The notes beneath the pieces are model-generated. The model did not search any database, was not told where the DNA came from, and saw only the letters and a program-made list of their open reading frames with translations. From Candidatus Saccharimonadota bacterium (GTDB lineage: Bacteria > Patescibacteriota > Gracilibacteria > Absconditabacterales > Absconditicoccaceae), in contig OZ246420.1 in NCBI GenBank assembly GCA_965231145.1, positions 1,075,294 through 1,107,293 on the forward strand: DNA of 32,000 nt, in the 5' to 3' direction. Of this stretch, positions 206 through 31,563 are shown in pieces (position 1 is the first letter of the stretch; each line of letters opens with the position of its first letter). A program made the translations under genes and the position numbers.

Positions 206-907
206 TTAGTTAGCGATCTTATTCATAGCTTGTTGCTTCTTTACCTCTTGAGTTTCCACTGGCGCAGACTTTGCCTTTACCAATATATCTCCTTTTGAAA
301 TCCATACTTTTACACCTATGATTCCATATTTTGTAAGAGCTGTTGTATAATGATAATCAATATCTGATCTTAATGTCTGGAGCGATACTCTTCCTTCTGA
401 GAATTTTTCACTTCTTGAGAGATCAACACCACCAAGACGACCTGAAACCTGAACCTTTATACCCGTTGCTCCCTTTTCCATTACTTTCTGGAGAAGAGTT
501 TTTGCAACGCGTCTAAATGGCATACGAGCTTCTATCTGACTTGCAGCAAACTCAGCCATGATCTTAGCTGAAAGCTCAGGGAGTCTTACATCTTTCAATG
601 CAACTTTAAACTCACGACCGAACTTTTTCTGCAGGAGTTTTGTGAAAGCATCAAGCTTTGCTCCGTCTTTTCCGAGAATAACAGCTGGCTTTGCAGTAAA
701 GATGATCACTTCACCTTCTTTATCGGTTTTTCTGATCACCGTCTTTGCAATACCCGCTCTCACGAAAGTAGACTCAACAAGAGCTCTTATCTTGATATCC
801 TCAACAAAGAACTGAGCGCCTTGAGACTTAGTTTTTGCAAACCACTCTGAAGACCACGCTTTCGTGATACCCGCTCTAAATCCTCCTGGATGTACTTTTT
901 GTCCCAT
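206..907 (-). CDS. rpsC: 30S ribosomal protein S3
   Basis: 233-aa ORF starting MGQKVHPGGFRAGITKAWSSEWFA..., with the KH and S3-C signature. Operon position is between rplV and rplP. Confidence 0.95.
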   Translation of the reverse strand: MGQKVHPGGFRAGITKAWSSEWFAKTKSQGAQFFVEDIKIRALVESTFVRAGIAKTVIRKTDKEGEVIIFTAKPAVILGKDGAKLDAFTKLLQKKFGREFKVALKDVRLPELSAKIMAEFAASQIEARMPFRRVAKTLLQKVMEKGATGIKVQVSGRLGGVDLSRSEKFSEGRVSLQTLRSDIDYHYTTALTKYGIIGVKVWISKGDILVKAKSAPVETQEVKKQQAMNKIAN

Positions 908-919
908 AAGAATGAAAGT

Positions 920-1258
920 TTATTTAGTATCTAAAACAACTCTAACAAATGCTCTATGTTTCACATATGCGTGTATTCTTGATCTACCAACAAATCTATT
1001 TCTTTTGATCTCCTGGCCGCGACCCACATTGATATGTGAGATATAGAGCGCCTGTGCTTGCTTCCCGGCATTGGTGATAGCATTAGATTGTGCTGATCTT
1101 ACGACCTTCCAGAGCATCTTTGCTGCTGCTTTTGGCGTATGTTCAAGAACATTGAGAGCTTCATCAACTTGTTTTCATTGGACGAGTCTCGCTAAAAGCT
1201 GCATCTTCTTGTAAGATGTTAGTGCGTATTTAAGCGTTGCTGTAAGACTTTTATTCAT
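920..1258 (-). CDS. rplV: 50S ribosomal protein L22
   Basis: The track ORF 920-1117 extends upstream through one in-frame TGA to the ATG at 1256-1258. The result, MNKSLTATLKYALTSYKKMQLLARLVQ-G-KQVDEALNVLEHTPKAAAKMLWKVV..., puts the TGA on the Gly of the conserved L22 LVRGK motif. Confidence 0.9.
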
Positions 1259-1300
1259 GATATCACTACAATAACAATCGGATAAAAACAAACGAATACT

Positions 1301-1558
1301 TTAGAATGGATGCCCTTTAAACGTTCTTGTGAGGACAAACTCACCGAGTCTATGACCTATCATTTCTTCATTGATATAGAGACTCACAAACTGCTTTCCA
1401 TTATGGACAGCAAAAGTGAAACCAACCATCTCTGGAAGAATTTGAGATGCCCTACTCCACACTTTTATCACCTTTTTATCTCCGCTCTCATTCATCTTCT
1501 GTACTTTTTTTAGAAGAGATTCAGCGACGAAAAAGCCTTTTTTGAGTGATCTTGTCAT
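1301..1558 (-). CDS. rpsS: 30S ribosomal protein S19
   Basis: 85-aa [22 protein letters not shown]...[23 protein letters not shown], a typical S19. It lies between rplB and rplV. Confidence 0.95.
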
Positions 1559-1675
1559 TACTTATAGACTATAAAGCTAAATATATTACATAATTCATAA
1601 TTCAGAGATCAAGTTCAGAATGAAATACGGAGTAGATCCTTATTTAATTTTGCTCTCTAATTTCTGCTTTTTGAA

Positions 1676-2521
1676 TTAATTTTTAGTTCTTTTAGATACA
1701 ATAAACTTGTTAGACCACTTCTTACTATTTCTTGTTTTCTTACCTGCAGGTACTGGACGCCCACTAAATGTCTTAGGGAACCTCAAACCAATCTCTGCAT
1801 GTCCTTCTCCACCTCCGTGCGGATGGTCAACCGGGTTCATTGATTTACCGAGTACGTGAGGTTTTCTACCCATCCATCTCTGTCTTCCCGCTTTTCCGAT
1901 AACAACGTTCTTGTGATCTTCGTTACCAAGCTGACCGATAGTTGCAAAACACTTCTCATCAAACTTTCTTACTTCACCAGAAGGAAGTTTTACGAATACA
2001 ACACGAAGCGCCTCATCTTTACCAACGATCTCTCCATATGAACCAGCAGACTTAATGATCTTTCCTTTCGTGAAAGGAGTAAACTCAAGATTGAATACCT
2101 GAAATCCTTCTGGAATATCCTTAAGCTGTTTTCTGTTTCCAGCACTAAGAGTAGCCTGGTCTCCTGTCATGAAGGTATCTCCTACCGAAACCCCTTTCCA
2201 CGCCAACACATATCTTTTTTCTCCGTCAGCATAGTTTACGAGAGCAATTCTTACTGTTCTATATGGATCATACTCGATCTCCGAGACTTTTGCAGGGATA
2301 TTCAACTTATCATATCCTCTGAAATCTACGATACGATAGAGTCTTTTATGACCTCCTCCCATAAACCTTGACGTAACTCTACCGTATTGATTTCTTCCGG
2401 CAGTTGCTCCAAGAGTTTTCACAAGAGACTTTTCTGGTCTCTTTTTCGTAATATCGGAAAAGTCATATCATACCATAGAACGTCTAGATGGAGTATATGC
2501 TTTATACGTTTTCACAGCCAT
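1676..2521 (-). CDS. rplB: 50S ribosomal protein L2
   Basis: The track ORF 1676-2422 extends through one TGA to the ATG at 2519-2521 (MAVKTYKAYTPSRRSMV-G-YDFSDITKKRPEKSLV...). It contains the GGGHKRLYR and NPVDHPHGGGEG motifs. Confidence 0.95.
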
Positions 2522-2557
2522 TGTTACGAGAATGCGTTGATGAAAAATAAAGAATAA

Positions 2558-2899
2558 TTATTCAGCAATAGAGAGAGTTTCTCCCTTCTTAAGAGCTACG
2601 ACAGCTTTCTTGTACGCGCGTCTTACGAGGGTTCTATTTGCTCTTCCCTTTTCCTTTACCCATGCCACATTTACTGAGACTGGAGTAACATTGTATACGA
2701 TCTGTATAGCGTTTTTCACATCTATCTTGTTAGCACCTGCATGTACTTTAAATGAGTACTTCTGAGCATCATCCGACCCCTTATACGCCTTTTCTGTAAC
2801 AATAGGCGCCAAGATAATCTGATAAGGACTAAGCTTAAGCAGAGCTTTTGGAGAAGACGACTTCTTTGCTCTCTGTCTGAGTATTTGCTTAAAGGTCAT
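2558..2899 (-). CDS. rplW: 50S ribosomal protein L23
   Basis: 113-aa ORF containing IILAPIVTEKAY...FKV. Operon position is between rplD and rplB. Confidence 0.85.
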   Translation of the reverse strand: MTFKQILRQRAKKSSSPKALLKLSPYQIILAPIVTEKAYKGSDDAQKYSFKVHAGANKIDVKNAIQIVYNVTPVSVNVAWVKEKGRANRTLVRRAYKKAVVALKKGETLSIAE

Positions 2900-2956
2900 G
2901 GTAACACATAATACGAGTAATAAATATATTCAGATGTTTCACAATCAAATGCTCTA

Positions 2957-3592
2957 TTAAGAAACCAGTGCTTCAATTTTTTCAAGAGATCCATCAAGAA
3001 GAAGAACCTTATCATACTGAAGAAGATCTACTGGGTTGATATAATCAGCGAGGATATACTTTGTGCGAGGAATGTTATTCAACGATTTCTCGATTACCTC
3101 ATTCTTTTCAGACATAACGATGAGTGTTTTCTTCTCAGCCAATCCAATCTTACCAAGCATAGTTATAGCAGACTTCGTCTTGATAGCTGCAAGAGGATTT
3201 GCCTCGAGCCCAAGAAGTTGATCGTTCTTTGCCTTAAGAGTGATGATACCACACAATGCAAGCTTCTTCATTTTCTTATTCATAGCTTTACCGTGATTGA
3301 CATCGTTTCTTGGTCCAAACGCCACACCTCCGTGCTTTCTTATAGGAGAACGGCTTGATCCAGCTCTCGCACTACCAGTACCTTTTTGTCTGAATAGCTT
3401 CTTTCCAGAACCAGCAACCTCTGCTCTCGTTTTTGTATGAGCAATAGGATTGCGGGCATTAGCCTGCTGAAGAAGGAAGAACTCATGGATAAGGTCGTCG
3501 TTGATTCTTTCATCATTGAAAAGAGTTTCATTGAGCGAAAGCTTTCCTGTTGCCTTTCCGTCTTTATTGTAGACTTGTATCGTATATGTCAT
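2957..3592 (-). CDS. rplD: 50S ribosomal protein L4
   Basis: The ORF contains KGTGSARAGSSRSPIRKHGGVAFGP. I chose the start at the internal Met (MTYTIQVYNKDGKATG, ATG 3590-3592) because the 13-aa upstream extension looks non-native. Confidence 0.9.
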   Translation of the reverse strand: MTYTIQVYNKDGKATGKLSLNETLFNDERINDDLIHEFFLLQQANARNPIAHTKTRAEVAGSGKKLFRQKGTGSARAGSSRSPIRKHGGVAFGPRNDVNHGKAMNKKMKKLALCGIITLKAKNDQLLGLEANPLAAIKTKSAITMLGKIGLAEKKTLIVMSEKNEVIEKSLNNIPRTKYILADYINPVDLLQYDKVLLLDGSLEKIEALVS

Positions 3593-3644
3593 ACTTACAC
3601 ACAAAAGTAATTTAAATAGAAAAGTGTTCAAACCATGATATCGA

Positions 3645-4250
3645 CTATGCTACATACACAGCCACGAGACTATTATATGCACCAGGAACAGACCCTCTTA
3701 TAGCAATGAACTTATCATCACCCACGGTAATAATATCTGCTATAGGTCTATGCTGCAAGGTAACAGTCTCGGTACCCATATGTCCAGCATGAGGATGTCC
3801 TTTCTGTACTCTTCTTGGCTTTCTATTACCAAGAGATCCCACGTGTCTATGAAACTTTGAACCGTGTGTTTTTGGACCTCCAGCAAGATGAAACCTCTTT
3901 ACAGCACCTTGAAATCCTTTACCCTTTGAGATTCCCGTTAGAGAGACCTCCTCAACCCCTTCGAGAAGAGAAATATCAACAAAAGAACCCTCAGAAAACT
4001 TCCCCTTGAACATATCGCTCGTAGGAAACTCCTTCATCCAAGCATAGCTTACCTTCTGCCCCTTTTCCTTTGAGAGTTCTTTTTTCCCTCCGGCAAGTAC
4101 GACAGCTTCGTAGCCATCCTTTTCTTCTGTCTTATATCTAACGACCTCCTGTGGAACAAGCTGCAAAAGCGTCACCGCTACATGCGCATCGCCGATCCAG
4201 AGCTTAGTCATTTCTTTTTTTCTGACCATAAGTCACCCTTTTTTCCCCAT
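3645..4250 (-). CDS. rplC: 50S ribosomal protein L3
   Basis: The track ORF extends 7 codons through a TGA to the ATG at 4248-4250 (MGKKG-G-LMVRKKEMTKLW...). It contains KGKGFQGAVKRFHLAGGPKTHGS. Confidence 0.9.
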
Positions 4251-4308
4251 TATAGTTAACGAGATTATTAGCGAGAATAAAATATTTCGTTCGTATTGCA
4301 CACAAAAG

Positions 4309-4629
4309 CTAGAATACTTTCACCTCTACTGAAACACCAACAGGTATTGAGAGATTTTGAAGATACTCTATCGTTTTTGCTCCAGTTTCCACAACATCAA
4401 TAAGTCTTGCGTATGTTGTTCTCTCAAATTGTTCTCTTGCGTTTTTATACACAAAATTTGACCTGAGCACCGTATAAAGCTTTCTTTGCTTAGGAAGTGG
4501 TATAGGTCCCTTCATCGTTGCTCACGATTTCACAAGGAGCCCTATAATCTTGCTCGCAGAACTTTCGAGCATCTTTACATCATAGCTTTTAAGCTTTATC
4601 CTAAGCTTTGGAGATTTTACTTCTGCCAT
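4309..4629 (-). CDS. rpsJ: 30S ribosomal protein S10
   Basis: The track ORF 4309-4515 extends through a TGA to the ATG at 4627-4629. The result, MAEVKSPKLRIKLKSYDVKMLESSASKIIGLLVKS-G-ATMKGPIPLP, puts the TGA on the Gly of the conserved TGA..GPIPLP region. Confidence 0.9.
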
Positions 4630-4685
4630 ACCAGTTCGTTGTTGTGAGGAAAACTAAATATATTTAATATGCAGCACTTAGATGC

Positions 4686-4726
4686 TAGATGTTAGATTAT
4701 GACATACTGTCAACCTCTAACATCTC
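4686..4726. repeat. Intergenic hairpin built from the TAGATGTTAG / CTAACATCT motif, just downstream of tuf
   Basis: AGATGTTAGA (4687-4696) is the exact reverse complement of TCTAACATCT (4716-4725). The same CTAACATCT motif recurs at 16141-16164. Confidence 0.5.
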
Positions 4727-4751
4727 CGATCTAAATGCTATTATTAATGAA

Positions 4752-5924
4752 TTATCCGATAATCTTAGTAATAACTCCGGCACCTACAGTTCTACCACCT
4801 TCACGGATAGCAAATCTGAGACCTTCTTCCATAGCGATCTTGTAGATAAGTTCTACTGAGATCTTAGCATTGTCACCAGGCATAATCATTTCTCTTCCCT
4901 CCATACTTACAGTTCCAGTTACGTCAGTTGTTCTTACGAAGAACTGAGGCTTGTAACCAGCCATAAATGGAGTATGTCTTCCACCTTCTTCCTTCTTCAA
5001 TACGTATACCTCAGCTTCAAATTTGCTGAAAGGCTTAACAGATCCTGGCTTAGCAAGAACTTGTCCTCTTTCTACCTGGTCTTTTTCAATACCTCTGATA
5101 AGAAGACCAACGTTCATACCTGCATCAGCAGACTGATGTTGCTTGTGAAACATTTCAACTCCTGTTACTACTGTTGGAGTTGGCTCGTCCTTAAGACCAA
5201 CGATTTCGATAGGATCATTCATATTGATAACACCTCTTTCAATTCTACCCGTAACCACAGTACCTCTACCCTTAATAGAGAATACGTCTTCAACTGGCAT
5301 AAGGAAAGGCTTAGCTGTATCACGAACTGGATCAGGAATGTAGCTATCAAGAGCAGCGAGAAGATCCCACACACACTTAGCAGCACCAGCTTCGTCAGTT
5401 GAGTTTTCAACCGCCTTAAGAGCCGAACCTCTGATGATAGGAGCGTTAGCACCATCAAATCCGTTCTTAGTAAGGAGATCTCTGATTTCCTCTTCTACGA
5501 GGTCAACCATATCTGCATCCTCCACCATATCACACTTATTGAGGAACACAACGATGTATGGAACATTTACCTGCTTAGCAAGAAGTACGTGCTCTCTTGT
5601 TTGAGGCATTGGTCCGTCTGTAGCAGCAACCACGAGGATAGCTCCGTCCATCTGAGCAGCACCAACGATCATGTTCTTGATATAGTCGGCATGTCCTGGA
5701 CAGTCGATGTGAGCGTAGTGTCTTGTGTCTGTTTCATACTCTACGTGTCTTGTGTTGATAGTAATACCTCTTGCTTTTTCTTCTGGAGCATTATCGATAT
5801 CACCATAGTTTTGCGCCTTTGCAAAACCTTTTGTAGCAGCTACTGTTGTGATAGCAGCAGTCAAAGTTGTTTTACCATGATCTACGTGACCGATGGTACC
5901 TACATTAACGTGTACTTTAGACAT
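4752..5924 (-). CDS. tuf: Elongation factor Tu
   Basis: [26 protein letters not shown]..., with DCPGHADY and NKCD motifs. The start is the ATG at 5922-5924. The 58 upstream residues in the track ORF are read-through of the tRNA-Pro gene. My frame check found no in-frame CGA or CGG codon. Confidence 0.97.
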
Positions 5925-6039
5925 GTCGGATGTATAAGTATAAAAGATAAATATAAGATCCATCGCTGAAGCGACATAACGATCAAGATTCTTCCTTATC
6001 GTCATGTCGCCCCTTCGATATCGAGTGCTGTATAGAATT

Positions 6040-6113
6040 TCGGGGATGCGGGACTCGAACTCGCGGCCTCTTGGTCCCAAACCAAGCGCTCTAGCCATCT
6101 GAGCTAATCCCCG
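6040..6113 (-). tRNA. tRNA-Pro (anticodon UGG)
   Basis: The reverse complement is CGGGGATTAGCTCAGATGGCTAGAGCGCTTGGTTTGGGACCAAGAGGCCGCGAGTTCGAGTCCCGCATCCCCGA. It folds as a cloverleaf with a C1-G72 pair typical of tRNA-Pro and anticodon loop TTTGGGA. Confidence 0.85.
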
Positions 6114-6120
6114 GTAGTAG

Positions 6121-6197
6121 TGGTGGGCATAGGTGGACTCGAACCACCGACCTCGTCCTTATCAGAGACGCGCTCTAACCAACTGAGCTATATGCCC
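6121..6197 (-). tRNA. tRNA-Ile (anticodon GAU), CCA encoded
   Basis: The reverse complement is GGGCATATAGCTCAGTTGGTTAGAGCGCGTCTCTGATAAGGACGAGGTCGGTGGTTCGAGTCCACCTATGCCCACCA, with anticodon loop CTGATAA. Confidence 0.9.
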
Positions 6198-6209
6198 ATA
6201 TAAATTTCG

Positions 6210-6284
6210 TGGTGCCGGGGGGCAGAATTGAACTGCCGACACAGGGCTTTTCAGGCCCCTGCTCTACCACTGAGCTACCCCGGC
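6210..6284 (-). tRNA. tRNA-Phe (anticodon GAA), CCA encoded
   Basis: The reverse complement is GCCGGGGTAGCTCAGTGGTAGAGCAGGGGCCTGAAAAGCCCTGTGTCGGCAGTTCAATTCTGCCCCCCGGCACCA, with anticodon loop CTGAAAA. Confidence 0.9.
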
Positions 6285-10904: not shown

Positions 10905-11255
10905 ATGCTGCACTATAAGGAACTTTTGGTATGGCAAAAAAGCGTTGCCATAGCTATTCATGCATATAAAATAACACAGCCTTTCCCAAAGTCCGAACTA
11001 TTTTGACTTACAGATCAAATAAGAAGGTCTTCCGTTTCTATTGCTGCTAATATTGCAGAATGATCACAAAGAGGGACAAAAGAATATAAACACTTTCTTA
11101 AAATAGCAAGAGGTTCAATTGCAGAACTAGATACTCATTTGATTATCAGCAAAGAGGTATGATTTCTTACAGAAGATACCTATAATTTTGTTTACAATCA
11201 ATTAATGGAAGTATGAAGAATGAGCGCATCCTTGTTAAAAAAGCTTTGAGTATAG
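10905..11255 (+). CDS. Four-helix-bundle protein (23S rRNA intervening-sequence protein / Avd-like family)
   Basis: MLHYKELLVWQKSVAIAIHAYKITQPFPKSELF-G-LTDQIRRSSVSIAANIAE-G-SQRGTKEYKHFLKIARGSIAELDTHLIISKEV-G-FL matches the family signature (W.K...L......FP..E.FGL..Q.RRA..SI..NIAEG......EF..FL.IA.GS..E). TGA falls on the conserved Gly positions. Confidence 0.85.
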
Positions 11256-12259: not shown

Positions 12260-15200
12260 TTACTGTGACCATGTGAATGGGAAAGCACCAGTATTCTTGT
12301 AAGATGAAGTGTCATTGATAACAACGTCACCATTGTCAAGCTTATCAAGGTATGATACGTTTGTAAGGTTGAGACCCATAGGGTTAGAAGTTGTACCATT
12401 CAATGTCGCGATTGGATTAACAACCTTGATAGAGAATGTTATCGTAGCCCCATTAGAGATTTCAACTGGCATACTAGCACCTGCTCCGCTGAAGTTAATA
12501 GTACCAGCTGATCCAGAGTAGATAAGATCACCTCCAAGACCATTCTTGTACACATTAACAACTGGTGCAGCAGCACCGTAACCTGTTGTATTTACTAGAT
12601 CAAATGTGAATCCAGTAACTTGAACTCTATTACCCTTAGCAGTTACATCAAATCTTGCAAACTCAGAAGTCGAAGGAGTTACGTTTACCTTAGAAACAGA
12701 TACCGCACCTCTTGCGATCTTAGTAGACTGAGAAATAGCAACTGTAGGATTAGATACAGCAGTAACAAGCTGTCCATTAGATTTAGAGATAGCTCTTACA
12801 CCACTGTAAGTACCAGCAGTCTGATCAGCAATATCGTTAGCTGTATCGAATGCAAATGTGAATCCTGTAGTTACGTCACCTGTATTAAGAACTGAACTGA
12901 TGTCAGCCTTGATAGAGTAAGTCTTAGTCTGTGAAACAGCAAGACTGTTGTTTGACATACTTTCGAATGCAATTACACCGTTTCTGATTGTACCGAACCA
13001 AGAGTTAGTACCATCAGTAAGCTGTACATTGTTGATCTTGTTAGCAAGGTTTGTTCCGAGACCACCATTTGCCTTAACGTAGAGATCAGTGAGATCAACT
13101 GCATCGTTCTTACCTTCAAGGTTGAACTGAGCGATTGTCACGTTTTGCTGACCACCGTAAAGGAGTTGTGACTGGAGTGATGAGTTAGCTGCAACTTCTA
13201 CTGTAGCAGAACCATTGATAGTGAGTGTACCACCCGCTACGTCAGTTACTGTAACAGAATTAGAAGTTACTGTATCTAGAGCATCAACGTCAGTAAGCGT
13301 AAGCTTCAATGTATCAGTTGTACCAGCAGTGAAGTTACCTCTTACAGTCCATGATACTGGAGCGTTCTTCGCTACAGTAATATTGAGGCTAGAGAATGTG
13401 ATCTTACCGTTTTGGTATGTAGCAGTCTTAACAGCATTACCTTGCGCGTCGTAAAGAGTTGCAGTAAGCTTGTTGTTGAATGCGCTTTGTGGAACTACAC
13501 CAGCTGATGTTGCACCAGAAAGAGTAATCTGATTGATTCTAATAGAGTTAGCCTGAGATGTTGAGAATGTAGCACCGTAAAGGAGCTGATCCTGAGCACC
13601 GTCAACAACTGTCTTAGAAGAGATACCGTCAGTTCTTGAAACAGCAAGTTTAGAAGCTACGATAGTGATTGTTGCACCTTCGATAGAACCAACTGAAGCT
13701 GATCCAGAAACTGCGTTTTGGTTATTCTGATACTCTGCAGTGTCAAAACTGTCGAGTGTGAGAGGACCAAATTTGATAGTAGCAGCACCAGCGTTTGACT
13801 TAATGTCAGCTGTAAGCTCTACGTCAACTGTACCATTGATAGCTACTGAACCATCAAATGATGCAGCTGTAAGACCTGTTCCGCTATCTGCAGACCAAGT
13901 GAACGTAGAACCACCGATTCTAAGTTTGTATGAGTTAGCGATGTTACTTGCTCCTGTAGAAGCAGTGAACGCTAAAGCAATATCCTCGAGGTATACTGGA
14001 CTCTTAGCAGAGATAGTACCCTTAAGAAGAACTGAACCGTTAGTACCTGGAGAAATACTGTTAGAGAGTGAGAAAGCTGAATCTCTCTTGAACATTACAT
14101 CAGCACCATTTACTGTGTAAGTCTTAAGTGTTGGAGTTCCAGATACTCTTACTCTAAATGCAGTTGTTTCTTCGATAACATTGAGATCAGAAGTGTTTCT
14201 GAGTCTGAAGATATATGTATCACCATCAACACCGTCAACATAGTTAACAGTACCTCTGATGTAGTAGTTAGCAGTCTGTCCGTCCTTGATTTCGTCACCG
14301 TTACCAAGACCGAATGTAAGATCCTTACCATTCATAACTGTTACAGTTGATACCTTAGTACCGTTTCTGTAAAGAGCTACATTTGAAAGGCTAGTAAGAT
14401 CTCCATCACCATCCTGTCTAAATGTTACTGACTTGAAGCTAAGATCTCTTTCGTCAGCACCAGTAGAAGAATCGATAACTCTGAACTGACCAATTTCAAG
14501 ATCAGTAGCATCAGTAGCAGTTGCAGTAAGTCCTGCACCAGCTTCCTGGATAGTTACCAATGAAACAAGGTAGTTAGCAGTTCTAAGTGTTGGAGTAGTA
14601 ATCATACCAACTACATTAGCAGCAGTACTGTCGATAGATGTAGACTGGAACATATGTTCACCTCCTACATTAGCAGCAGCCATGTCAGCGTAAAGGTCGA
14701 TAGATTCAGTTGTTCCTGCCTTGATCACCCATGCTGGTGCGAAGCTAAGAGTAACTGTCTGATCAGAACTTACCGAAGCTCTAGAAGACACTCTGATACC
14801 GTCTTTTTCGAAGTATACTCTAGAAATGTCAGACGCGTTACCGAGTCCTGATCTCTTAAGAGTTACTGAATTAACAGTAATGTCCTTAGAACCTGCAGCA
14901 AAGTCTACAGTAGCGAACTTCACTGAACCTGCTTGAGGAACAGAAGAAAGGTTTGCTGGAGACGCAGAGTTCATTGAGATATTGAGGTTACCTTCTCTTA
15001 CAACGATAGGACCAGTAGAACCAGTACCATTGTTATTACAAAGAGTTGGATCAATATCACAAAGACCATTGTTGTCTATTGCCAATCTGTAGAGCATGAG
15101 CATCATGTCACCTCTAAGGATTGATTGACTAAGCATAGCGTACTTCATGATCCCCTTAGAGTTAAGGAGTTCGAAGTGAGCTTGTTCAGAAGACATAGGA

Positions 15201-15628
15201 TCAATTTCACCGAGCATACGAGATACTACAGTTGCAACCTGACCTCTTGTTACTTCTTGCTTAGGCATGAACTTACCATCGTGTCCCATCATGAGACCGA
15301 GGTTACAAGCAGCTGTGATGCTGTCAGTAAGAGTGTCGTCAGCCATAGCGGTATCTGTGAAATCGCAGCTTCCTGCAACTTCTTCGAGACCGAGTACTGA
15401 CATACCAAACTGGCTAGCAAATTTAGCAAATTGCTCTCTAGTAAGATTTGCGTAAGGCATAAATGTGTCTGTTCCGCTGTACTTTGTCAAACCTGCATCG
15501 TAACCCCAAGAGATCGCGTCGATCATTTCAGGATCAGTTACTACTGGAGCTCCGTAAGCGAGACCAGTAACGAGTTGACTAGCAACAACGGCAGCAGCAG
15601 CTGATGTAGCAATAAGCTTTTTCAACAT
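12260..15628 (-). CDS. Putative S-layer / cell-surface protein: signal peptide, three SLH-like repeats, then a long Ser/Thr/Gly/Asn-rich region of repeated beta-type modules
   Basis: The start is placed at MLKKLIATSAAAAVVASQLVTGLAYGAP (ATG 15626-15628). SLH-like segments are IDAISWGYDAGLTKYSGTDTFMPYANLTREQFAKFASQF, FTDTAMADDTLTDSITAACNLGLMMGHDGKFMPKQEVTRGQVATVVSRML, and a degenerate third ending ILRGDMMLMLYRL. The remaining ~900 aa is low in charged residues and shows recurring VTL..SG... and V.L.DG motifs. It is an uninterrupted 1122-codon frame with a strong terminator. Confidence 0.75.
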   Translation of the reverse strand: MLKKLIATSAAAAVVASQLVTGLAYGAPVVTDPEMIDAISWGYDAGLTKYSGTDTFMPYANLTREQFAKFASQFGMSVLGLEEVAGSCDFTDTAMADDTLTDSITAACNLGLMMGHDGKFMPKQEVTRGQVATVVSRMLGEIDPMSSEQAHFELLNSKGIMKYAMLSQSILRGDMMLMLYRLAIDNNGLCDIDPTLCNNNGTGSTGPIVVREGNLNISMNSASPANLSSVPQAGSVKFATVDFAAGSKDITVNSVTLKRSGLGNASDISRVYFEKDGIRVSSRASVSSDQTVTLSFAPAWVIKAGTTESIDLYADMAAANVGGEHMFQSTSIDSTAANVVGMITTPTLRTANYLVSLVTIQEAGAGLTATATDATDLEIGQFRVIDSSTGADERDLSFKSVTFRQDGDGDLTSLSNVALYRNGTKVSTVTVMNGKDLTFGLGNGDEIKDGQTANYYIRGTVNYVDGVDGDTYIFRLRNTSDLNVIEETTAFRVRVSGTPTLKTYTVNGADVMFKRDSAFSLSNSISPGTNGSVLLKGTISAKSPVYLEDIALAFTASTGASNIANSYKLRIGGSTFTWSADSGTGLTAASFDGSVAINGTVDVELTADIKSNAGAATIKFGPLTLDSFDTAEYQNNQNAVSGSASVGSIEGATITIVASKLAVSRTDGISSKTVVDGAQDQLLYGATFSTSQANSIRINQITLSGATSAGVVPQSAFNNKLTATLYDAQGNAVKTATYQNGKITFSSLNITVAKNAPVSWTVRGNFTAGTTDTLKLTLTDVDALDTVTSNSVTVTDVAGGTLTINGSATVEVAANSSLQSQLLYGGQQNVTIAQFNLEGKNDAVDLTDLYVKANGGLGTNLANKINNVQLTDGTNSWFGTIRNGVIAFESMSNNSLAVSQTKTYSIKADISSVLNTGDVTTGFTFAFDTANDIADQTAGTYSGVRAISKSNGQLVTAVSNPTVAISQSTKIARGAVSVSKVNVTPSTSEFARFDVTAKGNRVQVTGFTFDLVNTTGYGAAAPVVNVYKNGLGGDLIYSGSAGTINFSGAGASMPVEISNGATITFSIKVVNPIATLNGTTSNPMGLNLTNVSYLDKLDNGDVVINDTSSYKNTGAFPFTWSQ

Positions 15629-15692
15629 GTGTCGTTGTAAAAAAGGAAATAAATAGAATGGATAAAACATCCATAAATTAAAACATCCCAAT

Positions 15693-15708
15693 CCGTGTCT
15701 CCACACGG
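15693..15708 (-). promoter_or_regulatory. 5' leader hairpin upstream of the S-layer gene
   Basis: CCGTGT-GGAG-ACACGG on the minus strand lies about 65 nt upstream of the start codon. It is preceded by TTGACA-N17-TAATGT. Assigning it a leader or stabiliser role is inference. Confidence 0.35.
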
Positions 15709-15924
15709 TTACATTAGTAATACTCATCTACCCTGTCAATGCAAGTCTTTTTTGACACAACACGACAGACATATTTTGCTAGGTAGATACTGACTTATAT
15801 GTAACACATCAGTACCCTAGATACGAGCAAATTCGGTTTTTGTGACACACATATATACATTAATATAGACATAGAATAGATTTATTTAAGACACATTAAG
15901 CCTTGACCGGTTTCATAAAATAAA

Positions 15925-18824: not shown

Positions 18825-21287
18825 CTATTGTTCATCCTTGGCATACCACTGATCAACCCATTTGTTTCGCTTATTTGATAATTCTCAGCTAAACAAAGCC
18901 AATCCTTTGCCGACGAAATAGTCTATAAAGACTGATGGGTCGGTCTTAAATGCAAATTGCTTTTTCAAATCTCCTATAGCAAAGGAATATCCTTCTAATG
19001 ACAAGTTCTTACCTCAAGATAGAGAGTTCATGGCCTTTATATTGGCGTCTAAAAGCTCTTGCAGAGCAACAATATCGGGATTTTGCCGTACCATAGCCCA
19101 GTTTTCCCTAAGATAGTTCTGGACAATCTTATCATAGCTTTTCCAGATCTTCGTCTCAAGTTGTGAAGCTGAAAGCTTGGTTTTATAGTCGGTGCGGACC
19201 GACTTTACCTGCTGATAGTACTTCCTCCATTTAGCCTCCAATGTTTCCTTTGTCTTCTTGTATCTTTCCTGCAGAGTCTTGTATTGAGAGGTCTTTTTAT
19301 CAAATTTCTTCTGCAGAGAATCTATTTTCTTCTGATATGACGCTTGTTTTTTTGCATCAAGAGCAGGGGAGAGATCTTGACATGAAAAAGGCGTCTCGCC
19401 AAAAAATGCACATACCTGTCCAGTCTGGACAGCGAGGCGTAGCTGCTTCATTCGTGAGAAGTCGGTTATACCTGAGAGAGTATTGTCGGAAGCAATATTG
19501 CCAGTAAGACCTATCCAGACACCTGCTTCAGGTTGTCCATAACAGAAAGTGTCCTGGACTATAGCATTGTGTTCAAGGGTAATACATGTGGGCTTGTTGG
19601 TAAAGCCAAATGTGCCTTTTACTGTCTGCTTGTCTCAGGGCATCTGGAGAAGTCATCCTAGCATCGTTTTCTTTGAGCCAACGCGAATAAGAAACGAAGA
19701 GATATCTATAGGACCGCCCGATACAAGCTCCACCGTAACCTGCTCATTATGCTCGTCCTTCCCGTCTCCATCTGCCATGACAGCGACAATCCTTACCTGA
19801 TTGGACAATCACGACACAACTTCGCCATTGAACTCTTCGGCTCAGTCGACAAGCTCTATCTCGCCTGCATTTGTCTTTTTATATGCTATTCATCCCTTGT
19901 TCACCGCAAGGCCAAAGGCTGAGATTTGGTCTTTCAGATCGTAGTAACGATCTTTCCGCTTTTTATATAACCCCTGATAATAGGAGTTGTCGACACTTGT
20001 TTTCGTTGCCAAGGAGGAGGAAGAATATGCTGAGAAATATGCCAACGCTTTCTCAGAAAATCATGGGGTTGGAAAATCTTTCTGTATTGGTTCACTCCCG
20101 CTCATATACCATGAACGACCAGAGGCTGAGCCTGTATAATGAACGTTCGCATAGACAGAACCGAAAGCATCTGTCACAACGAGACTCTCTCCTCCGTCTG
20201 TAAGAGACACTGAATCCGTGAGTAAAACCATAGAGGGGTCTACAAAACCAGATAGGGAGTCGGCAAAAACAACATATTGACCTGCGTGGACATTGAGGTG
20301 GACTGTCTTAGCTGTCGAGCTAGAACCGATTCATTGAATGATCAAACTACCGGAAAAAGACGACACAAAAAACAATTCCATGTATTCAGGCAATGTGTCA
20401 TTAGTCGGGTGTATTTCACTTATTATAATACCACTATTAAAAGAAGCCTCGCCGGTGGAAATATTGTCTCAAGTGAGAATATTGCCAGTAAGGGGAGGAG
20501 TGGTTTCACTCGCGGACGGAAGTGGAGGCATTGGTTGATATGTCATGATCTGTCCGGGATTGGCAATCCAGGTACCGGAAATATTTGTTACTCTCCCGGT
20601 GTTGGTGGAAGAAACAGCAACAACTCATCCAGACCAAATCTTTTCGAAACCATAGTTATTGGGCAGGACAGAAAGGATAGATGCCTCTACAGAGAATGTG
20701 TCCAGAAGTTGTCATGAGCTATACAAACCGACAGCAAGAGCATTTGTATCAGAAATACTGAGTCCCAATGATGATCCCTGAACGACCCCTCTGTCTATAA
20801 ACTGCGCCATTGTGTCTCACCAGACAAATGTCGAACCAACAGGAATATGTATCAATCAGAGAGAAAGATCTGATGACTTCACGCCTTTTACTACGAGTGG
20901 TCATATGAACTCTCATGATCAGATATTCGAGATCTCGAACCACTCGTCGCTCCCATCAAAAAATATTTCTGACACGATAAGCGCCGCCTCGCCAGTGAAA
21001 AGAGTCTGCCCAGTCTCTACAAGTAACGCTGACACTATGTCGTCAGCAAGAGCTGTCTCAACAAAGACACCCGACGTAGTGAATAAATCACTAGCAACTC
21101 ATGACAGCTCGACAGAAGTGGGGAGAGGTGCTTCGGAAACAAGCAACTCCGGAACTTGTTCCATAATCAGTCAGTCTGAAAGAGCCTGCAAAGAGAGAGT
21201 AGGAATCTCTATCGACTCCGCAAACAATAAGAAATAGCTATGAAGCGTCATCAACAAAATAAGGCCAAAGCATAATCATTTTTTCAT
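18825..21287 (-). CDS. Secreted protein with three lamin-tail-domain (LTD)-like modules and a C-terminal Lys/Gln-rich coiled coil
   Basis: The single 820-codon frame is visible only with TGA read as Gly (I counted about 29 in-frame TGA). The signal peptide is MKK-G-LCFGLILLMTLHSYFLLFA. LTD-like segments are ALIVSEIFFDGSDEWFEISNI-G-S-G-EFI, GIIISEIHPTNDTLPEYMELFFVSSFSGSLIIQ-G-I, and VRIVAVMADGDGKDEHNEQVTVELVSGGPIDISSFLIRV. The tail is the track ORF 19014-19451. Confidence 0.7.
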
Positions 21288-21442
21288 TTTTGTTTTTGTT
21301 CAAAGAGTAAATTTTGCATTGCCACCATAGAAAAAATGTGTCATCTTACAAGTAATTGTGTCCACCAGAATGACAAAAAAGTTGTATAATATCAATTTCC
21401 GCTACTCTACGCCAGAAATCAAATAAAAAACCCTCTAAAAAT

Positions 21443-25352: not shown

Positions 25353-26051
25353 CTACGAACTACTTCTTCCTATGACGACACCCCAAATCACTATGCGAGG
25401 ATAGAGCTTTTTCAACGCTTTTGCCGCAGCATTAATCGTCGATCATGTTGTCGTTACATCGTCAACAATAAGGACAAATTCATCTCATTTTAATGAGATA
25501 TTGCTACGTAATGAAAAAACGTCTTCCAGATTTTTCATCCTCTTTATACGAGAGAGGAATGCCTGTATGCGAGTATGTCTGTTTTTCATGAGCAATGGTT
25601 CATACGTCATTCATAATTTCTGTGCGACGCCAGAGGCAAGGAGGTCTGACTGGTTGTACCCTTTGATAAAATATTTTCTGTATCGATGAGAAGGGATCGA
25701 TGTGATGACGACACGCTTTGTGCGGAATCATTTTTGTAATGTCTGATTTGTTTGGATAACAAGCGAAAGACGATCAACAAGAAACGAAGCGACATCGTAG
25801 CGATGATAATATTTGAGCTGCAAGATAAGTTTTTTTAATAAATCGTGATATGCAAACCCGATAGCGATGCCCTGATAAGCGACCTCATGTCTATAGTCTA
25901 GATGTACCGCAAAATCCTGAGAGAAGCGATGGCTCACCGGACAAAGCTCCTGATGTGGTTGAAGCGTCTTTTTGCATTGCGAACACAAATAATCACCAGC
26001 ACTCTGACACCCTATACACAGCTTTGGAAATAGAAGATCGATGAGTTTCAT
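25353..26051 (-). CDS. comF: ComF-family protein (zinc finger plus phosphoribosyltransferase-like domain)
   Basis: MKLIDLLFPKLCIGCQSAGDYLCSQCKK..., extended through TGA codons past the track ORF end. Motifs are KGYNQSDLLA and EFVLIVDDVTTT-G-STINAAAKAL. An alternative start lies at 26093. Confidence 0.8.
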
Positions 26052-26177
26052 TTTATCTTTGTAATAAAAAAATATCTGCAGTGAAGCAGACATTTCATGT
26101 TCAGTAAGATAATATAAATCTATGATAGTTTTCCTTTAATTGTTCATTCGTAATTATTAATTTGTAATTGAATTACA

Positions 26178-28336: not shown

Positions 28337-29887
28337 TTATACATTTTCTACAAACATCGTTTTGCTTCTATATTGCATAGCTTCTGCAATGTGGGGTACA
28401 CCGACAATTTCTACTCATTCGACATCTGCTATAGTACGGGCAAGCTTGAGCATACGATGGATGACGCGTCAAGACAAATGGAGTTTTTTTGCAGCTTGTT
28501 TCAGGAAATTTTCTGCTTGTTCATCGAGAACTATGTACTTTTGAATTTCCTTAGACGTTACTCATGCATTAGAAAAAATACCGGTTCCTACATATCTTTT
28601 TTGTTGTATCTCCCAGGCATGCATTACTTTTTCACGTAATAATTCAGAGCTTACTCACTGGATCTTTTCAAAGAGCGTATCGACATTTTCACGTGGTATC
28701 TCTAGAATCATATCAATCCTATCCAGCAGTGGTCATGAGATCTTCGACTGATAACGTTTAATATCAAGCAATCAACAAACACATGATTTTTCAGGATCTT
28801 TATAGTAGCCACACTTACATGGATTCATCGCAGAGATAAACATAAAATGCGCAGGATACCAGACTGATCACGCTGCACGAGAGATCGTTATCTGTTTGTC
28901 TTCTATGGGCTGACGAAGCACCTCCAAGACTTCACGTGGAAACTCAGGAAGCTCGTCGAAAAAGAGTATTCACTTATGGGCAAGCGACACTTCTCATGGT
29001 TGCAGGCTGGCTCATCATCATATGATAGACACTTTACTCGCTGTATGATGCACCGGACGAAAAGGGCGCTGCGTCACTAAGGGTTGCTCCTTGCTTAACT
29101 TTCCGACGATAGAATAAATCTGTGAGACTTCTATCATTTCATCGAAATGAAGCGGCGGTAAGATAGACTGAAGGGCATGTGAGAGCAGCGTCTTTCATGA
29201 GCCTGGAGCGCCGACCATGAGCACATTGTGTCATCCAGCGGCAGCGATAGCAAGCGCGCGCTTTGCAACAAGATGTCACTTGATGCTACTAAAATCTACT
29301 GGGAATGTTGTAGCGCTTGTAGCAAGATCACTGAGAGATTTTGTAGTAACGAACGGCTCTCTTTTCTTTCCTGCAATAAAAAATTCTATGAGTTCAGCAA
29401 AGGTAGAGAGCGGATAGATCGTAATTCATTGGATATATTCTAACTCATATATATTGTCGCTGGGGATGAAGAAGATCGTATATCCTCTTTTCATGGCTGC
29501 GATAACTGCAGGCAAAAGACCCGTAATTCTTCTGACGGATCCGTCGAGTCAAAGTTCACCAAAGAAAAGAGTTTCTGCAAGAGTTGCTTCATGATGGATA
29601 TGTTCACTAATAAGAAAAAGTATCGCTGCAGCCATGGGCAGATCAAACTGGGTTCATACTTTTTTGATATCAGACGGTGCTAAGTTGAGAATGATTTTCC
29701 TGGGCGGAAGCTCGACGCCGGCATTACGAAACGTAGCACGCAAACGTTCTTTCGACTCCTTAATAGCCGCATCGGGCAGTCATATAATTTCTATAGTTGG
29801 AATCGCCTTATTACTATCTGCCTCTATGGTGATCTCGTGACCCTCAAGTCCAAAAGTAGCAAATGTTTTGACATATGACTGTGGCAT
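28337..29887 (-). CDS. comM: ComM/YifB-family Mg-chelatase-like AAA+ ATPase
   Basis: The 516-codon frame is recovered with ~19 TGA codons read as Gly. Motifs are [53 protein letters not shown] (Walker A), [29 protein letters not shown] and [11 protein letters not shown]. It has no in-frame CGA or CGG. Confidence 0.9.
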
Positions 29888-30009
29888 CTGTTTTTGTTTT
29901 GGAAAAATAAATTGTCTCTCATCGTAGAAATTGAACCATGCGTTACAAGAGAGGAGACGAGAATAGTCTGGAGAATATTATTTTATAAAAATATGATTTT
30001 TTTCTTAAC

Positions 30010-30500
30010 AAAAAAGAGCCCGGAGAACCCGGGCCCTACTGAGGCTTTCAAACATGGTTCGCGTGTTGCGGACCTTTAGGGTAGCCGGAAAGGCCCCCAT
30101 GAAGTCTGCGTAGCACGCCTAGAAAGTAATGCATAAACAAATGCCCCTCGCACATGATCGAATTAGGCGCATTACTTATCTACTACTGAACCCCTCAGTA
30201 AAAACAGAAAGCTATCTGAAGTCAGCTGTTACGCACTGATTATAGGAATGGCTGCTTCCAAGCCAACCTCCTCCAGGTCATTGCTTTCGCACTTATGCAA
30301 TAAACATTAGTTCACCGTTTTACCGCGACATGCTGGCACGATGAAAAGGGTGGGTTCCCATTTTAAATGCAAAGTTGTAAGCCAACTACATCCCTTTTTT
30401 GCCCCTAATGTTTAGCCAAAAACTTATCGGGCTTGTCCGCGTGGTGTCGGATCAGTATTTTCATACCAATTTCGGCCTCTCTTTTTTCGCTCGCCACTAC
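30010..30500 (-). ncRNA. GC-rich structured non-coding RNA(s), identity unresolved; RNase P RNA is one weak candidate
   Basis: There is no credible ORF. Local GC is far above background: 37 of 60 bases are G or C in 30061-30120. The minus-strand terminator is GCCCGG-GTTCT-CCGGGC plus TCTTTTTTG at 30010-30034. Perfect nested helices pair 30037-30044 with 30193-30200 (8 bp), 30125-30132 with 30169-30176 (8 bp), and 30053-30057 with 30097-30101. Short matches to RNase P conserved regions (GCGGUAAAAC, AGUGCGUAACAG, GAGGGGUUCA, CGAACCAUGUUU) are present, but I could not build a convincing P4 helix or motif order. Confidence 0.45.
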
Positions 30501-30612
30501 TTAAAGAGCAATGATAGTTATTCAGCTGTAGGAAATAATAGGATTGTTTATAGTATTTGCAATATCTTGTTTTCGGCCAATAAATCAGTATGTTTTCGTA
30601 CGATTTTAATTT

Positions 30613-31563
30613 GTGAAAATGAGTGAAATGGCTGATATTATAGTATTGGGACATAAGTCTCCAGACACTGATGCAATTTGTTCTGCGCTCGTATGGGCAC
30701 AATACCTAAAGGACCAAGGAGTAGATGCACAGGCAATCAGACTTGGAGAACCAAACAATGAGACAACATATGTACTGGAAAAAGCTGGGGTAGCGCTTCC
30801 TGAGTTTCTTACTGAGCTTCCGGAAGGACAAAAAATTGTGCTTACTGACCACAATGAAGCGGGACAGAGTATCAACAACAGAGGAAGCTACAAGATCGTT
30901 GGTATTGTCGATCATCATAAGATTGCTGATCTTGAGACAAGCGAACCTATTGCTATGAGAATCGAACCCGTAGGATGTGCGTGTACTGTTATCTATGCCA
31001 TCTTCAAAGAAAAAGGATACACACCAAATGCGAATATCGCTCGTCTTATGGTCTCTGCTATTATTTCTGATACGCTCTATTTCAGATCTCCAACCACAAC
31101 AGCATTTGATCGCCAAGCAATAGAAGAGCTCAATAAGATTGCAGCCATAACGAATCTTGAAGCATATTCTATGGAGATGTTTAACGCAAAGTCAGACCTC
31201 GGAGATATCACTATCAGAGATCTTGTCATGATGGACTACAAAACATTTGAATCGGGAGGAAAGAAGTTTGGAGCTGGAACTGTTGAGACAACAAACCCAG
31301 CGTTTGCTCTTGGTAAGAAAGCGGAGATCGTAGCAAAACTCAATGAACTTAAAACAGAGCAATCTCTCGACTTTATCATGCTCTCTGTAGTAGATATCTT
31401 ACAGGAGAAAAATATTTCTATCATCGCCAATGAGCATGATGCGCACATCGTACAGGAGGTGTTTAGTGCTGAAACTCACGATGGACTTGCAGATCTCGGC
31501 AACAGACTCTCAAGAAAGAAACAAATTGCAGCCCCACTCTCAGAGTACTTTATGAATCACTAA
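30613..31563 (+). CDS. ppaC: Manganese-dependent inorganic pyrophosphatase (family II, DHH/DHHA2)
   Basis: IIVLGHKSPDTDAICSA, VLTDHNE, IVDHHKI, SAIISDTLYFRSPTTT and SRKKQIAAPL are collinear with Bacillus PpaC. The true start may be the Met at 30628 (MADIIVLGH). It has no TGA, CGA or CGG codon. Confidence 0.92.
   Translation: MKMSEMADIIVLGHKSPDTDAICSALVWAQYLKDQGVDAQAIRLGEPNNETTYVLEKAGVALPEFLTELPEGQKIVLTDHNEAGQSINNRGSYKIVGIVDHHKIADLETSEPIAMRIEPVGCACTVIYAIFKEKGYTPNANIARLMVSAIISDTLYFRSPTTTAFDRQAIEELNKIAAITNLEAYSMEMFNAKSDLGDITIRDLVMMDYKTFESGGKKFGAGTVETTNPAFALGKKAEIVAKLNELKTEQSLDFIMLSVVDILQEKNISIIANEHDAHIVQEVFSAETHDGLADLGNRLSRKKQIAAPLSEYFMNH

Follow-up and report, generated by a model that had tools for sequence, protein, structure and literature searches.

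What fills the long gap between the genes comM and ppaC in this genome? The gap lies in a 32,000-nt stretch of contig OZ246420.1, which was analysed as a whole and is called the window here, and it extends for about 730 bp from the start of comM (29887, minus strand) to that of ppaC (30619, plus strand). The first-pass annotation had pointed out the length of this spacer and had proposed that it encodes either a divergent housekeeping RNA, such as RNase P RNA (rnpB) or 6S RNA, or an uncharacterized structured RNA. The latter proposal fits. Window 30528–30012 on the minus strand is almost certainly a real gene for a structured non-coding RNA with its own promoter and terminator. As judged by sequence comparison, the most conserved cores of this RNA are derived from ribosomal RNA (rRNA) in the sense orientation. 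The locus is made up of the following features.

28337 to 29887, minus strand: comM, encoding a YifB/ComM AAA+ protein (translated with genetic code 25; Pfam ChlI, Mg_chelatase and Mg_chelatase_C); it adjoins the RNA downstream on the same strand.
30009 to 30037, minus strand: intrinsic terminator with a 10-bp stem (30037–30015), a 3-nt loop and a U-run, found by scan.
30012 to 30528, minus strand: the RNA, about 515 nt, with ends placed from the promoter and terminator.
30535 to 30562, minus strand: sigma-70-type promoter with −35 TTGCAA, a 16-nt spacer and −10 TATTAT, found by consensus scan.
30619 to 31563, plus strand: ppaC, encoding a Mn-dependent inorganic pyrophosphatase (Pfam DHH and DHHA2, and homologues); it is divergent from the RNA.

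The promoter-like element and the minus-strand terminator had both been noticed in the first-pass annotation. Each was recovered by scan (the promoter reading from 30562 to 30535) and is kept in homologues of the RNA: the promoter as −35 TTGMAA, a 16-nt spacer and −10 TAYTAT in the related loci L020, L022 and L006, the terminator with compensatory changes in its stem (helix 21 of the consensus fold). Transcription would start about 7 nt downstream of the promoter. Its palindromic TTGCAA could double as the −35 element of a divergent ppaC promoter. A second promoter-like site at 30008–29980, together with a conserved TAYTAT about 45 nt past the terminator, suggests that comM is now transcribed separately from a promoter of its own.

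The spacer had been described as closed in all reading frames, and it is. No long open reading frame (ORF) is found under table 11, nor with TGA taken as a sense codon, where each of the six frames is still interrupted by TAA or TAG. Given these interruptions under either code, and indels between the RNA homologues that are not multiples of three, the spacer has no coding potential. The second code applies to the host. Coverage of the window by ORFs (frames of at least 150 codons) rises from 39% with the standard bacterial code to 85% with TGA as sense, and an in-frame TGA of comM specifies the glycine of the conserved IIGLPD motif in the code 25 translation. These observations indicate a genome that reads TGA as glycine (code 25), belonging to Patescibacteria of the Gracilibacteria/Absconditabacteria type; among named ppaC relatives, the closest carry the labels Patescibacteria and Gracilibacteria. 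The spacer had also been called much richer in G and C (GC) than its surroundings. Its GC content is indeed raised, to 0.45–0.50 in 30000–30300 compared with 0.407 for the whole window, although the rise is modest and not striking.

Folded as a single sequence, the RNA has an energy mildly better than that of shuffled sequences (z = −2.1). Because this value is unremarkable, the case for a structured RNA rests on its relatives. Contigs with related loci were fetched through ppaC homologues and provided a comparison set of four distinct RNA sequences from three diverged lineages (the window, L020/L022 and L006). RNAalifold predicted 136 pairs for these four sequences, 40 of them with compensatory double changes. 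Removal of a spurious 3-bp helix between the 5′ end and the U-run left a shared fold of 133 pairs, in which 95.4% of cells are paired. Both sides have changed in 39 of these pairs, compared with 17.4 ± 2.6 after column shuffling (0/500) and 2–10 when the partners were slid by 1–3 columns. The check for covariation in homologous spacers, recommended by the first-pass annotation, is therefore positive, and the RNA is kept in two lineages other than that of the window. The sequences contain 15–22 G·U pairs each, which would be A·C mismatches on the opposite strand, and 124 of 131 pairs of the window sequence hold on the minus strand compared with 110 on the plus strand. The minus strand is taken to be the RNA strand because the G·U pairs fit this strand only.

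The shared fold can be divided into the modules listed below, where H and h denote helices of 23S and 16S rRNA, respectively.

30400 to 30507, minus strand: 5′ module resembling 23S H13/H14, consisting of a hairpin CUCUUU/AAAGAG that carries AGUAGUGGCGAGCGAA, followed by a covarying hairpin at 30469–30452.
30436 to 30451, minus strand: short conserved hairpin UCCGACACCACGCGGA (consensus CCGRCACCAYNCGG), numbered helix 4 in the shared fold.
30281 to 30418, minus strand: domain closed by the long-range helices 30418–30414/30285–30281 and 30411–30405/30310–30304 (helices 5–10, with compensatory changes).
30313 to 30343, minus strand: h18-like hairpin CAUCGUGCCAGCAUGUCGCGGUAAAACGGUG with a 1-nt loop insertion (blastn, Infernal, compensatory stem).
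30207 to 30288, minus strand: copy of H42 (distal part), H43 and H44 (Infernal, blastn, nhmmer).
30037 to 30200, minus strand: 3′ domain (helices 14–20, with compensatory changes).

Besides the h18-like hairpin, the domain at 30281–30418 holds a covarying 11-bp hairpin (30393–30365) and a GGG/CCC hairpin. The 3′ domain is closed by a helix of 8 bp plus 5 bp, in which UACUGAGG-GGUUC pairs with GAACC...CCUCAGUA (the 8-bp part being 30200–30193/30044–30037). It encloses a long covarying hairpin at 30182–30120, which contains AGUAAUGC/GCAUUACU, and a second, variable arm. Both 8-bp helices singled out in the first-pass annotation, UACUGAGG/CCUCAGUA and AGUAAUGC/GCAUUACU, are thus real and supported by covariation. 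The GAAA tetraloop hairpin proposed alongside them did not hold up: the string GCGAAAGC forms the 5′ strand of an H42-like stem and is paired with GCUUUC about 75 nt downstream. The terminator is stacked on the helix that closes the 3′ domain, and no alternative antiterminator pairing was seen. With one promoter, one terminator and long-range helices that join the parts, the idea of two adjacent RNAs finds no support.

Where do the conserved parts of the RNA come from? Short strings in the spacer had been likened to conserved regions of RNase P RNA. They turn out to be rRNA strings, namely 23S 241–256, 16S 514–538 and 23S 1032–1103. The clearest case is the segment 30288–30207 (minus strand), which matches positions 1079–1158 of the Infernal model LSU_rRNA_bacteria for large-subunit (LSU) rRNA with 51.4 bits (gathering score 50; E = 8.5e-15) and with all helices formed. 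The same module scores 44.4 bits (E = 1.2e-12) in L020 and 37.0 bits (E = 3.4e-10) in L006. When compared by blastn with one E. coli rrn operon, all three lineages match 23S 1032–1103 in the sense orientation (E = 1e-6 to 4e-10), and in a blastn search of all complete E. coli genomes (5426 of 5426) the RNA matched the 23S gene. A profile of the RNA family gave nhmmer matches to E. coli 23S 1038–1103 (E = 9e-12) and 225–288 (E = 0.004). Between lineages the outer stalk-base helix covaries (CUGGAG/CUUCAG versus CGAAG/CUUCG), as does the H42-like stem (GAAAGC/GCUUUC versus AGGCU/AGCCU). The H42–H44 module is very probably a genuine rRNA-derived domain, corresponding to the 23S stalk base or GTPase-associated centre.

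The two remaining rRNA-like modules are probably rRNA-derived as well. The segment 30507–30400 (minus strand) matches LSU_rRNA_bacteria 236–349, the H13/H14 region, with 14.6 bits (E = 0.0069), the confident alignment being limited to its first ~60 nt. In the comparison with the E. coli operon, 23S 213/241–263 is matched in each lineage in the sense orientation (E = 0.02–0.36), and the 16S 498–555 region (core 514–538) is matched by all three (E = 0.003–0.02), again in sense. The h18-like hairpin agrees with the consensus at 28 of 31 bases, yet it has a 1-nt loop insertion, differs between lineages and is weakly matched by Infernal. Its stem changes in a compensatory manner, from CAUCGU/ACGGUG to CAUCGU/ACGAUG and ACACGU/ACGUGU. 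At the 5′ end of the RNA (window 30498–30512, minus strand) there is also a string, UUGCUCUUUAAG, that is identical at 10/10 positions to what we take to be the core of the E. coli rrn antiterminator boxA (UGCUCUUUAA). It is kept at 9/10 positions in L020 and is not kept in L006; since it overlaps the H13-like stem, the resemblance may be a coincidence.

A count of short words gave the same picture for the RNA as a whole. Among the 29 conserved 12-mers (at least 11/12 positions invariant), 26 match E. coli rRNA in the sense orientation with at most two mismatches, compared with three in antisense; with at most one mismatch, the numbers are 15 and 0. No such bias is seen for variable 12-mers (61 sense versus 64 antisense). 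Chained local alignment of the whole RNA gave z = 3.6 against E. coli 23S and was not significant against 16S (z = 0.8).

The copies are not exact at functional sites. Judged against E. coli and Rfam consensus rRNA, the rRNA genes of the host lying outside the window, all four copies carry G where the H43 loop has A1067 (GGCUUGGAAGC versus consensus GGCUUAGAAGC). The 530 loop contains a 1-base insertion and differs between lineages (CAGCAUGUCGCGG versus CAGUAGGCCGCGG). In real 16S h18, the invariant loop GUGCCAGCAGCCGCGGUAA is closed by the 511–516/535–540 stem. The bases that we take to hold the tertiary fold of the 1051–1108 domain (U1060, A1088, G1071, C1072, G1091–C1100 and C1092–G1099) are kept in the module, as read by eye from the Infernal alignment.

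Matching was confined to particular parts of the ribosome. When the RNA was tested against full-length 23S, model positions 1079–1158 and, weakly, 236–349 were the only ones matched, with no pieces of the peptidyl-transferase centre or decoding helices; blastn against the E. coli rrn operon found no match to the sarcin–ricin loop or the 16S 3′ end. The 3′ domain gave no rRNA match with Infernal, and the similarity of its CCUUGUACA to 16S 1388–1403 is at chance level (blastn E = 2.8–19). Several further resemblances of the RNA to rRNA elements were seen by eye and are put forward as conjecture. The domain at 30281–30418 might be a miniature of the 16S 5′-domain junction (h3 and h18). The 3′ domain might resemble the 16S head (h28/h30/h31, with CCUUGUACA similar to 1388–1396 and an h28-like closing helix), which Infernal and blastn do not support. 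The hairpin at 30393–30365 might correspond to H92, the A-loop, again with neither Infernal support nor a significant blastn match. A collinear miniature 16S is not claimed: the chained alignment with 16S is not significant, as given above, and Infernal reports no such elements.

The length of the scanned sequence matters for detection. The rRNA modules are visible to Infernal only on stretches of 136–271 nt; the 51.4-bit match to 23S was lost to the filters of the program when the 32-kb window or 851 nt were scanned, and was found on a 271-nt stretch. Accordingly, Rfam searches of the window at the gathering score, and of 851 nt of the spacer at E ≤ 10, returned only tRNAs and noise.

Is the RNA maintained, and by which relatives? 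Related loci differ in what lies between comM and ppaC.

L001: same sequence as the window; RNA present.
L020, L022 and L021 (partial): ppaC 83% identical; full-length homologue of the RNA in the spacer (L020 4478–5022, L022 248–791).
L006 and L007: ppaC 83% identical; full-length homologue of the RNA in the spacer (L006 1625–2194).
L016: ppaC 75% identical; a different RNA in the spacer.
L024: related lineage; a 304-aa ORF at 1044–1958 (plus strand) in the comM–ppaC spacer, without a Pfam family, and no RNA.
L002, L023, L003 to L005, L017, L019 and L028: spacer too short for the RNA (about 150–250 bp where measured) or no RNA match.

The three RNA-bearing lineages are roughly equidistant, and the four-fold degenerate sites of ppaC are 0.45–0.54 identical between them, which is near saturation. 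The RNA is 0.65–0.66 identical between lineages and has invariant blocks of 18–22 nt. This conservation, set against the near-saturated ppaC sites, points to purifying selection on the RNA. It is accessory to one clade of code 25 Patescibacteria and no universal housekeeping RNA. In relatives without it, the conserved promoter region is the same and lies about 110 nt ahead of the start of comM; the RNA thus occupies what was formerly the comM 5′ untranslated region (UTR).

Further members were not found in wider public collections. The pattern GTGCCAGC N3–5 CGCGGT N42–72 GAAGCAGCC matched public genome contigs seven times, in each case by chance (genomes of 60–71% GC, and no nhmmer similarity to the RNA). 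Related patterns gave no matches in metagenome and viral contigs, a search of metagenomes for loci with ppaC yielded no usable sequence upstream of it, and blastn of phages gave none.

The RNA of L016 deserves separate mention. It lies at 3760–4200 (minus strand) in a 556-bp spacer, on the strand that corresponds to that of the window RNA, and has a promoter (TTGACA-16-TAGAAT), a length of about 390 nt and a terminator. It folds far better than shuffled sequences (minimum free energy z = −5.7). No similarity to the window RNA is detectable and no Rfam family matches, but it carries a 22/22 match to E. coli 23S 187–208 (GGGAACUGAAACAUCUAAGUAC). L016 groups with L002 and L023, both of which lack the RNA. 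In about 130 kb, comprising the window and the related loci, blocks that resemble rRNA at E < 0.05 are confined to comM–ppaC spacers of the window and L016 types. On this comparison, the site upstream of comM appears as one where fast-evolving structured RNAs with rRNA-derived cores occur in some lineages and nothing in others; the ORF in the L024 spacer is a further sign of an insertion hot spot.

What might such an RNA do? Its architecture would be that of a mosaic, in which an H13/H14-like hairpin, an h18-like hairpin and a complete H42–H44 domain, all in the sense orientation, are joined by hairpins and long-range helices that vary between lineages and still covary. Our best explanation overall, which is a tentative one, is that of an independent ~515-nt rRNA-mosaic gene whose product acts as a stand-alone molecular mimic of rRNA and offers folded sites to proteins that recognise rRNA. 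The likeliest partners at H42–H44 would be uL11 and uL10(bL12)n, possibly with binders of the h18 region as well. The isolated 1051–1108 RNA takes up its fold unaided and is bound by uL11, and uL10 is a ligand of H42, which is why binding of these two proteins is expected. Helices that are kept while the bases of functional sites vary would be the pattern of a scaffold recognised by proteins. The RNA is proposed to titrate or buffer such proteins, keeping them from the assembly of ribosomes or from the targets that they regulate. As a statement of function, protein-binding mimicry of rRNA, or a decoy role of this kind, is a possibility that we hold a little less firmly still. Beyond binding, the outcome could be the buffering of free ribosomal proteins (r-proteins), regulation of comM in cis, or the soaking up of an rRNA-directed factor.

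Several points weigh against this proposal. The function is something that we infer, the fold was derived from the alignment that was also used to count covariation, and it is supported by three diverged lineages only. The H13/H14 match is modest, and the h18 match is weak by Infernal (SSU_rRNA_bacteria, the small-subunit (SSU) model, positions 501–530; 7.9 bits, E = 1.7 over all 4227 families). The 3′ domain (30200–30037), about 40% of the RNA, has no assignment. The distribution is patchy, with about seven related lineages having a short spacer or no RNA, and given these relatives the RNA is dispensable. Finally, it adjoins no r-protein gene, the nearest r-protein operon being the S10 operon (206–4301) about 26 kb away, and it sits where relatives have the comM promoter.

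The last point makes a cis role for comM possible. The RNA could be a long 5′ leader or attenuator of comM, in which binding of r-proteins to the rRNA-like domains tunes read-through of the terminator; free r-proteins at times when rRNA synthesis drops would be an example of a trigger, and in Firmicutes, r-protein leaders that work through attenuation at a terminator provide a precedent. In every RNA-bearing lineage comM follows the RNA directly and is read from the same strand, as is also the case for the RNA of L016, and the window-type RNA has taken the place of the comM 5′ UTR. Against such a leader stand the strength of the terminator (10-bp stem, U6), its stacking on the 3′-domain helix with no antiterminator pairing seen, the apparent promoter of comM itself and the lack of any link known to us between ComM and r-proteins, which together make it unlikely. 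A decoy for a toxin, nuclease, modification enzyme or antisense/guide RNA that is directed at rRNA and comes from a host, competitor or phage is about equally improbable. In its favour, the cores belong to the most universally conserved parts of rRNA (23S 241–256, 16S 515–535 and 23S 1057–1103) and are in sense. The patchy distribution and the turnover at the locus, with another RNA in L016, resemble those of conflict-related genes, and cultured members of these phyla live as epibionts of other microorganisms (PMC11270868). However, no toxin or enzyme that such a decoy might act on is known, none is encoded in the neighbourhood, and the classic toxin targets, the sarcin–ricin loop and the 16S 3′ end, are absent from the RNA. 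The A1067G change is moreover expected to weaken, not strengthen, binding of thiopeptides.

A non-functional relic, that is, a chimeric rRNA pseudogene possibly kept rRNA-like by gene conversion, would account for rRNA-derived sequence that is undeniable and for an RNA that many relatives dispense with. It is nevertheless quite improbable. The invariant blocks and compensatory pairs persist despite near-saturated neutral sites and extend to hairpins that do not resemble rRNA, and the promoter and terminator are conserved. The order 23S–16S–23S is impossible to obtain from one 16S–23S operon by deletions alone, and G1067 and the variable 530 loop speak against conversion from normal rRNA. A true ribosome component acting in trans, in a clade with fragmented and scrambled rRNA to which the RNA supplies H42–H44, h18 and so on, has precedents: Chlamydomonas mitochondria, for one, have scrambled rRNA pieces. 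Small transcripts with interleaved LSU and SSU pieces are likewise found in apicomplexan mitochondria, as in Toxoplasma (PMC10948144), and the covariation that keeps the helices would agree with such a role. A ribosomal part is unlikely, however, because of the A1067G change, the variable 530 loop with its insertion and the absence of the RNA from close relatives; with universally conserved functional nucleotides altered and peptidyl-transferase and decoding-helix pieces missing, we regard this explanation as very improbable. The divergent housekeeping RNA of the first-pass annotation is the least probable of all and can practically be dismissed. Size and structure fall in the range of RNase P RNA and tmRNA (transfer-messenger RNA), and there is a dedicated promoter and terminator. 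Against this, the RNA is patchy and missing at this locus from close relatives, unlike an essential RNA, and none of the families named for checking (RF00010, RF00011, RF00013, RF00023 and RF00169) was matched, either on the spacer or on three shorter pieces of it, at the gathering score or at E ≤ 10. Neither CR-I (GAGGAAAGUCC) nor CR-V (ACAGAAxxCGGCUUA), the P4 strands of RNase P RNA (RF00010/RF00011), is found in invariant columns of the four-sequence alignment. 6S RNA (RF00013) is a rod of about 180–200 nt in which a large central bubble imitates an open promoter; the present RNA has a multi-domain fold of about 515 nt with long-range helices and no rod. ARAGORN found no tmRNA (RF00023) in the window, in agreement with the earlier remark that a tmRNA-type acceptor/T-arm is missing; in tmRNA the two ends form this tRNA-like part, and a tag reading frame is present as well.

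Other known RNAs were rejected in the same way. For SRP (signal recognition particle) RNA there was no Rfam match, and GGAAGCAGCC, first taken as the SRP helix-8 motif, is 23S 1068–1076. OLE, GOLLD, ROOL, HEARO and raiA gave no match at the gathering score or at E ≤ 10. The r-protein leader families (for example, the L10 leader RF00557) had no Rfam match, and the flanking genes are comM and ppaC, with no r-protein operon.

Comparison with these systems indicates where the RNA differs. It shares with 23S H42–H44 (RF02541 positions 1079–1158; E. coli 1030–1124) the sequence and the complete secondary structure, at or near the gathering score in a purely local match. Here, however, the domain is an 80-nt island in a 515-nt RNA rather than part of a 2.9-kb gene, its neighbours are 16S-like and unrelated hairpins, and it has G for the near-universal A1067. 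Like the r-protein leaders (L10 RF00557, L1, S15, S8), the RNA is a non-ribosomal molecule that displays a copy of an rRNA site, binding being predicted in the present case. Each of those leaders acts in cis as the short 5′ UTR of an r-protein operon and has a single site, whereas this RNA is multi-domain, has its own terminator, lies by comM and ppaC, and carries an H42–H44 that is near-literal and not a loose mimic. With fragmented organellar rRNAs it has in common the mixing of LSU and SSU pieces on a small transcript. Those fragments are the only rRNA of their organelle and keep the universal bases; here bases are altered, relatives lack the RNA and the gene is on a bacterial chromosome. 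OLE, GOLLD, ROOL, HEARO and raiA resemble it in being several hundred nucleotides long, highly structured, narrow or patchy in distribution and without a function evident from context. They match it neither in sequence nor in structure, and we know of none that is built from rRNA domains. RNase P RNA, 6S RNA and tmRNA are likewise stable structured RNAs with their own promoter and terminator, but their defining motifs and folds are absent here.

In the searchable literature on rRNA-mimic small RNAs, rRNA pseudogenes and structured RNAs of Gracilibacteria/Absconditabacteria, no such RNA was found to be described, and Rfam 15 contains no family that matches it as a whole. To our knowledge, the only previous cases of rRNA mimicry are the short cis-acting leaders of r-protein operons. 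The principle of mimicry is thus already known; a stand-alone multi-domain rRNA mosaic is not known, and there is a real chance that it represents a new class.

The surroundings of the locus provide some further observations. In the divergent comM/ppaC promoter region, at window 30557–30600, a motif RTACTGATTT-N6–8-GAAAACAAG-N2–4-TTGMMA is present. It is kept in L002, L003, L006, L016, L019, L020 and L028, with or without the RNA, and may be the ppaC promoter (TTGCAA-N18-TAAATC, plus strand) or the site of a regulator. Three competence-related genes lie within 14 kb: comEC (PF03772; 16179–17690, minus strand), a comFC-like gene (25353–26093, minus strand), the product of which is a phosphoribosyltransferase with a double zinc ribbon, and comM. 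The window also contains, at 206–6284 (minus strand), part of the S10 operon (rpsC, rplV, rplB, rplW, rplD and rplC) followed by tuf at 4752–6098, assignments that were read from translations and not from a family search, and a tRNA-Pro/Ile/Phe cluster (6040–6284, minus strand) after tuf. Between tyrS and ksgA, at 10905–11255 (plus strand), a 116-aa member of the ‘23S rRNA-intervening sequence protein’ family (PF05635, E = 1e-35) is encoded. It is weakly bAvd-like, and there is no reverse transcriptase nearby. Two very large predicted secreted or surface proteins are encoded at 12260–15727 (1155 aa) and 18825–21395 (856 aa), both on the minus strand.

For annotation, the locus carries a warning. 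Islands of rRNA-derived sequence in other non-coding RNAs may be missed routinely by scans of long stretches, because a match of 51 bits was invisible at the length of the window and at 851 nt. For the biology of the family, a bolder and rather doubtful reading is that the RNA founds a new class: a stand-alone, trans-acting, multi-domain ‘mini-rRNA’ that combines domain I and the stalk base of 23S with the h3/h18 junction of 16S and perhaps a 3′ domain resembling the 16S head. In a bacterium with a reduced genome and an epibiotic way of life it might serve as a surrogate of nascent rRNA that captures r-proteins (uL11/uL10, perhaps uS4/uS12 and others) or translation factors. If this were true, homeostasis of r-proteins, or interaction with the host, would be uncoupled from the synthesis of real rRNA, and the L016 RNA would count as a second member of this functional class that arose independently. 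Patescibacteria have reduced ribosomes and fewer biogenesis factors. If the RNA does bind r-proteins or factors, it would provide a novel means of buffering or regulating the translation machinery.

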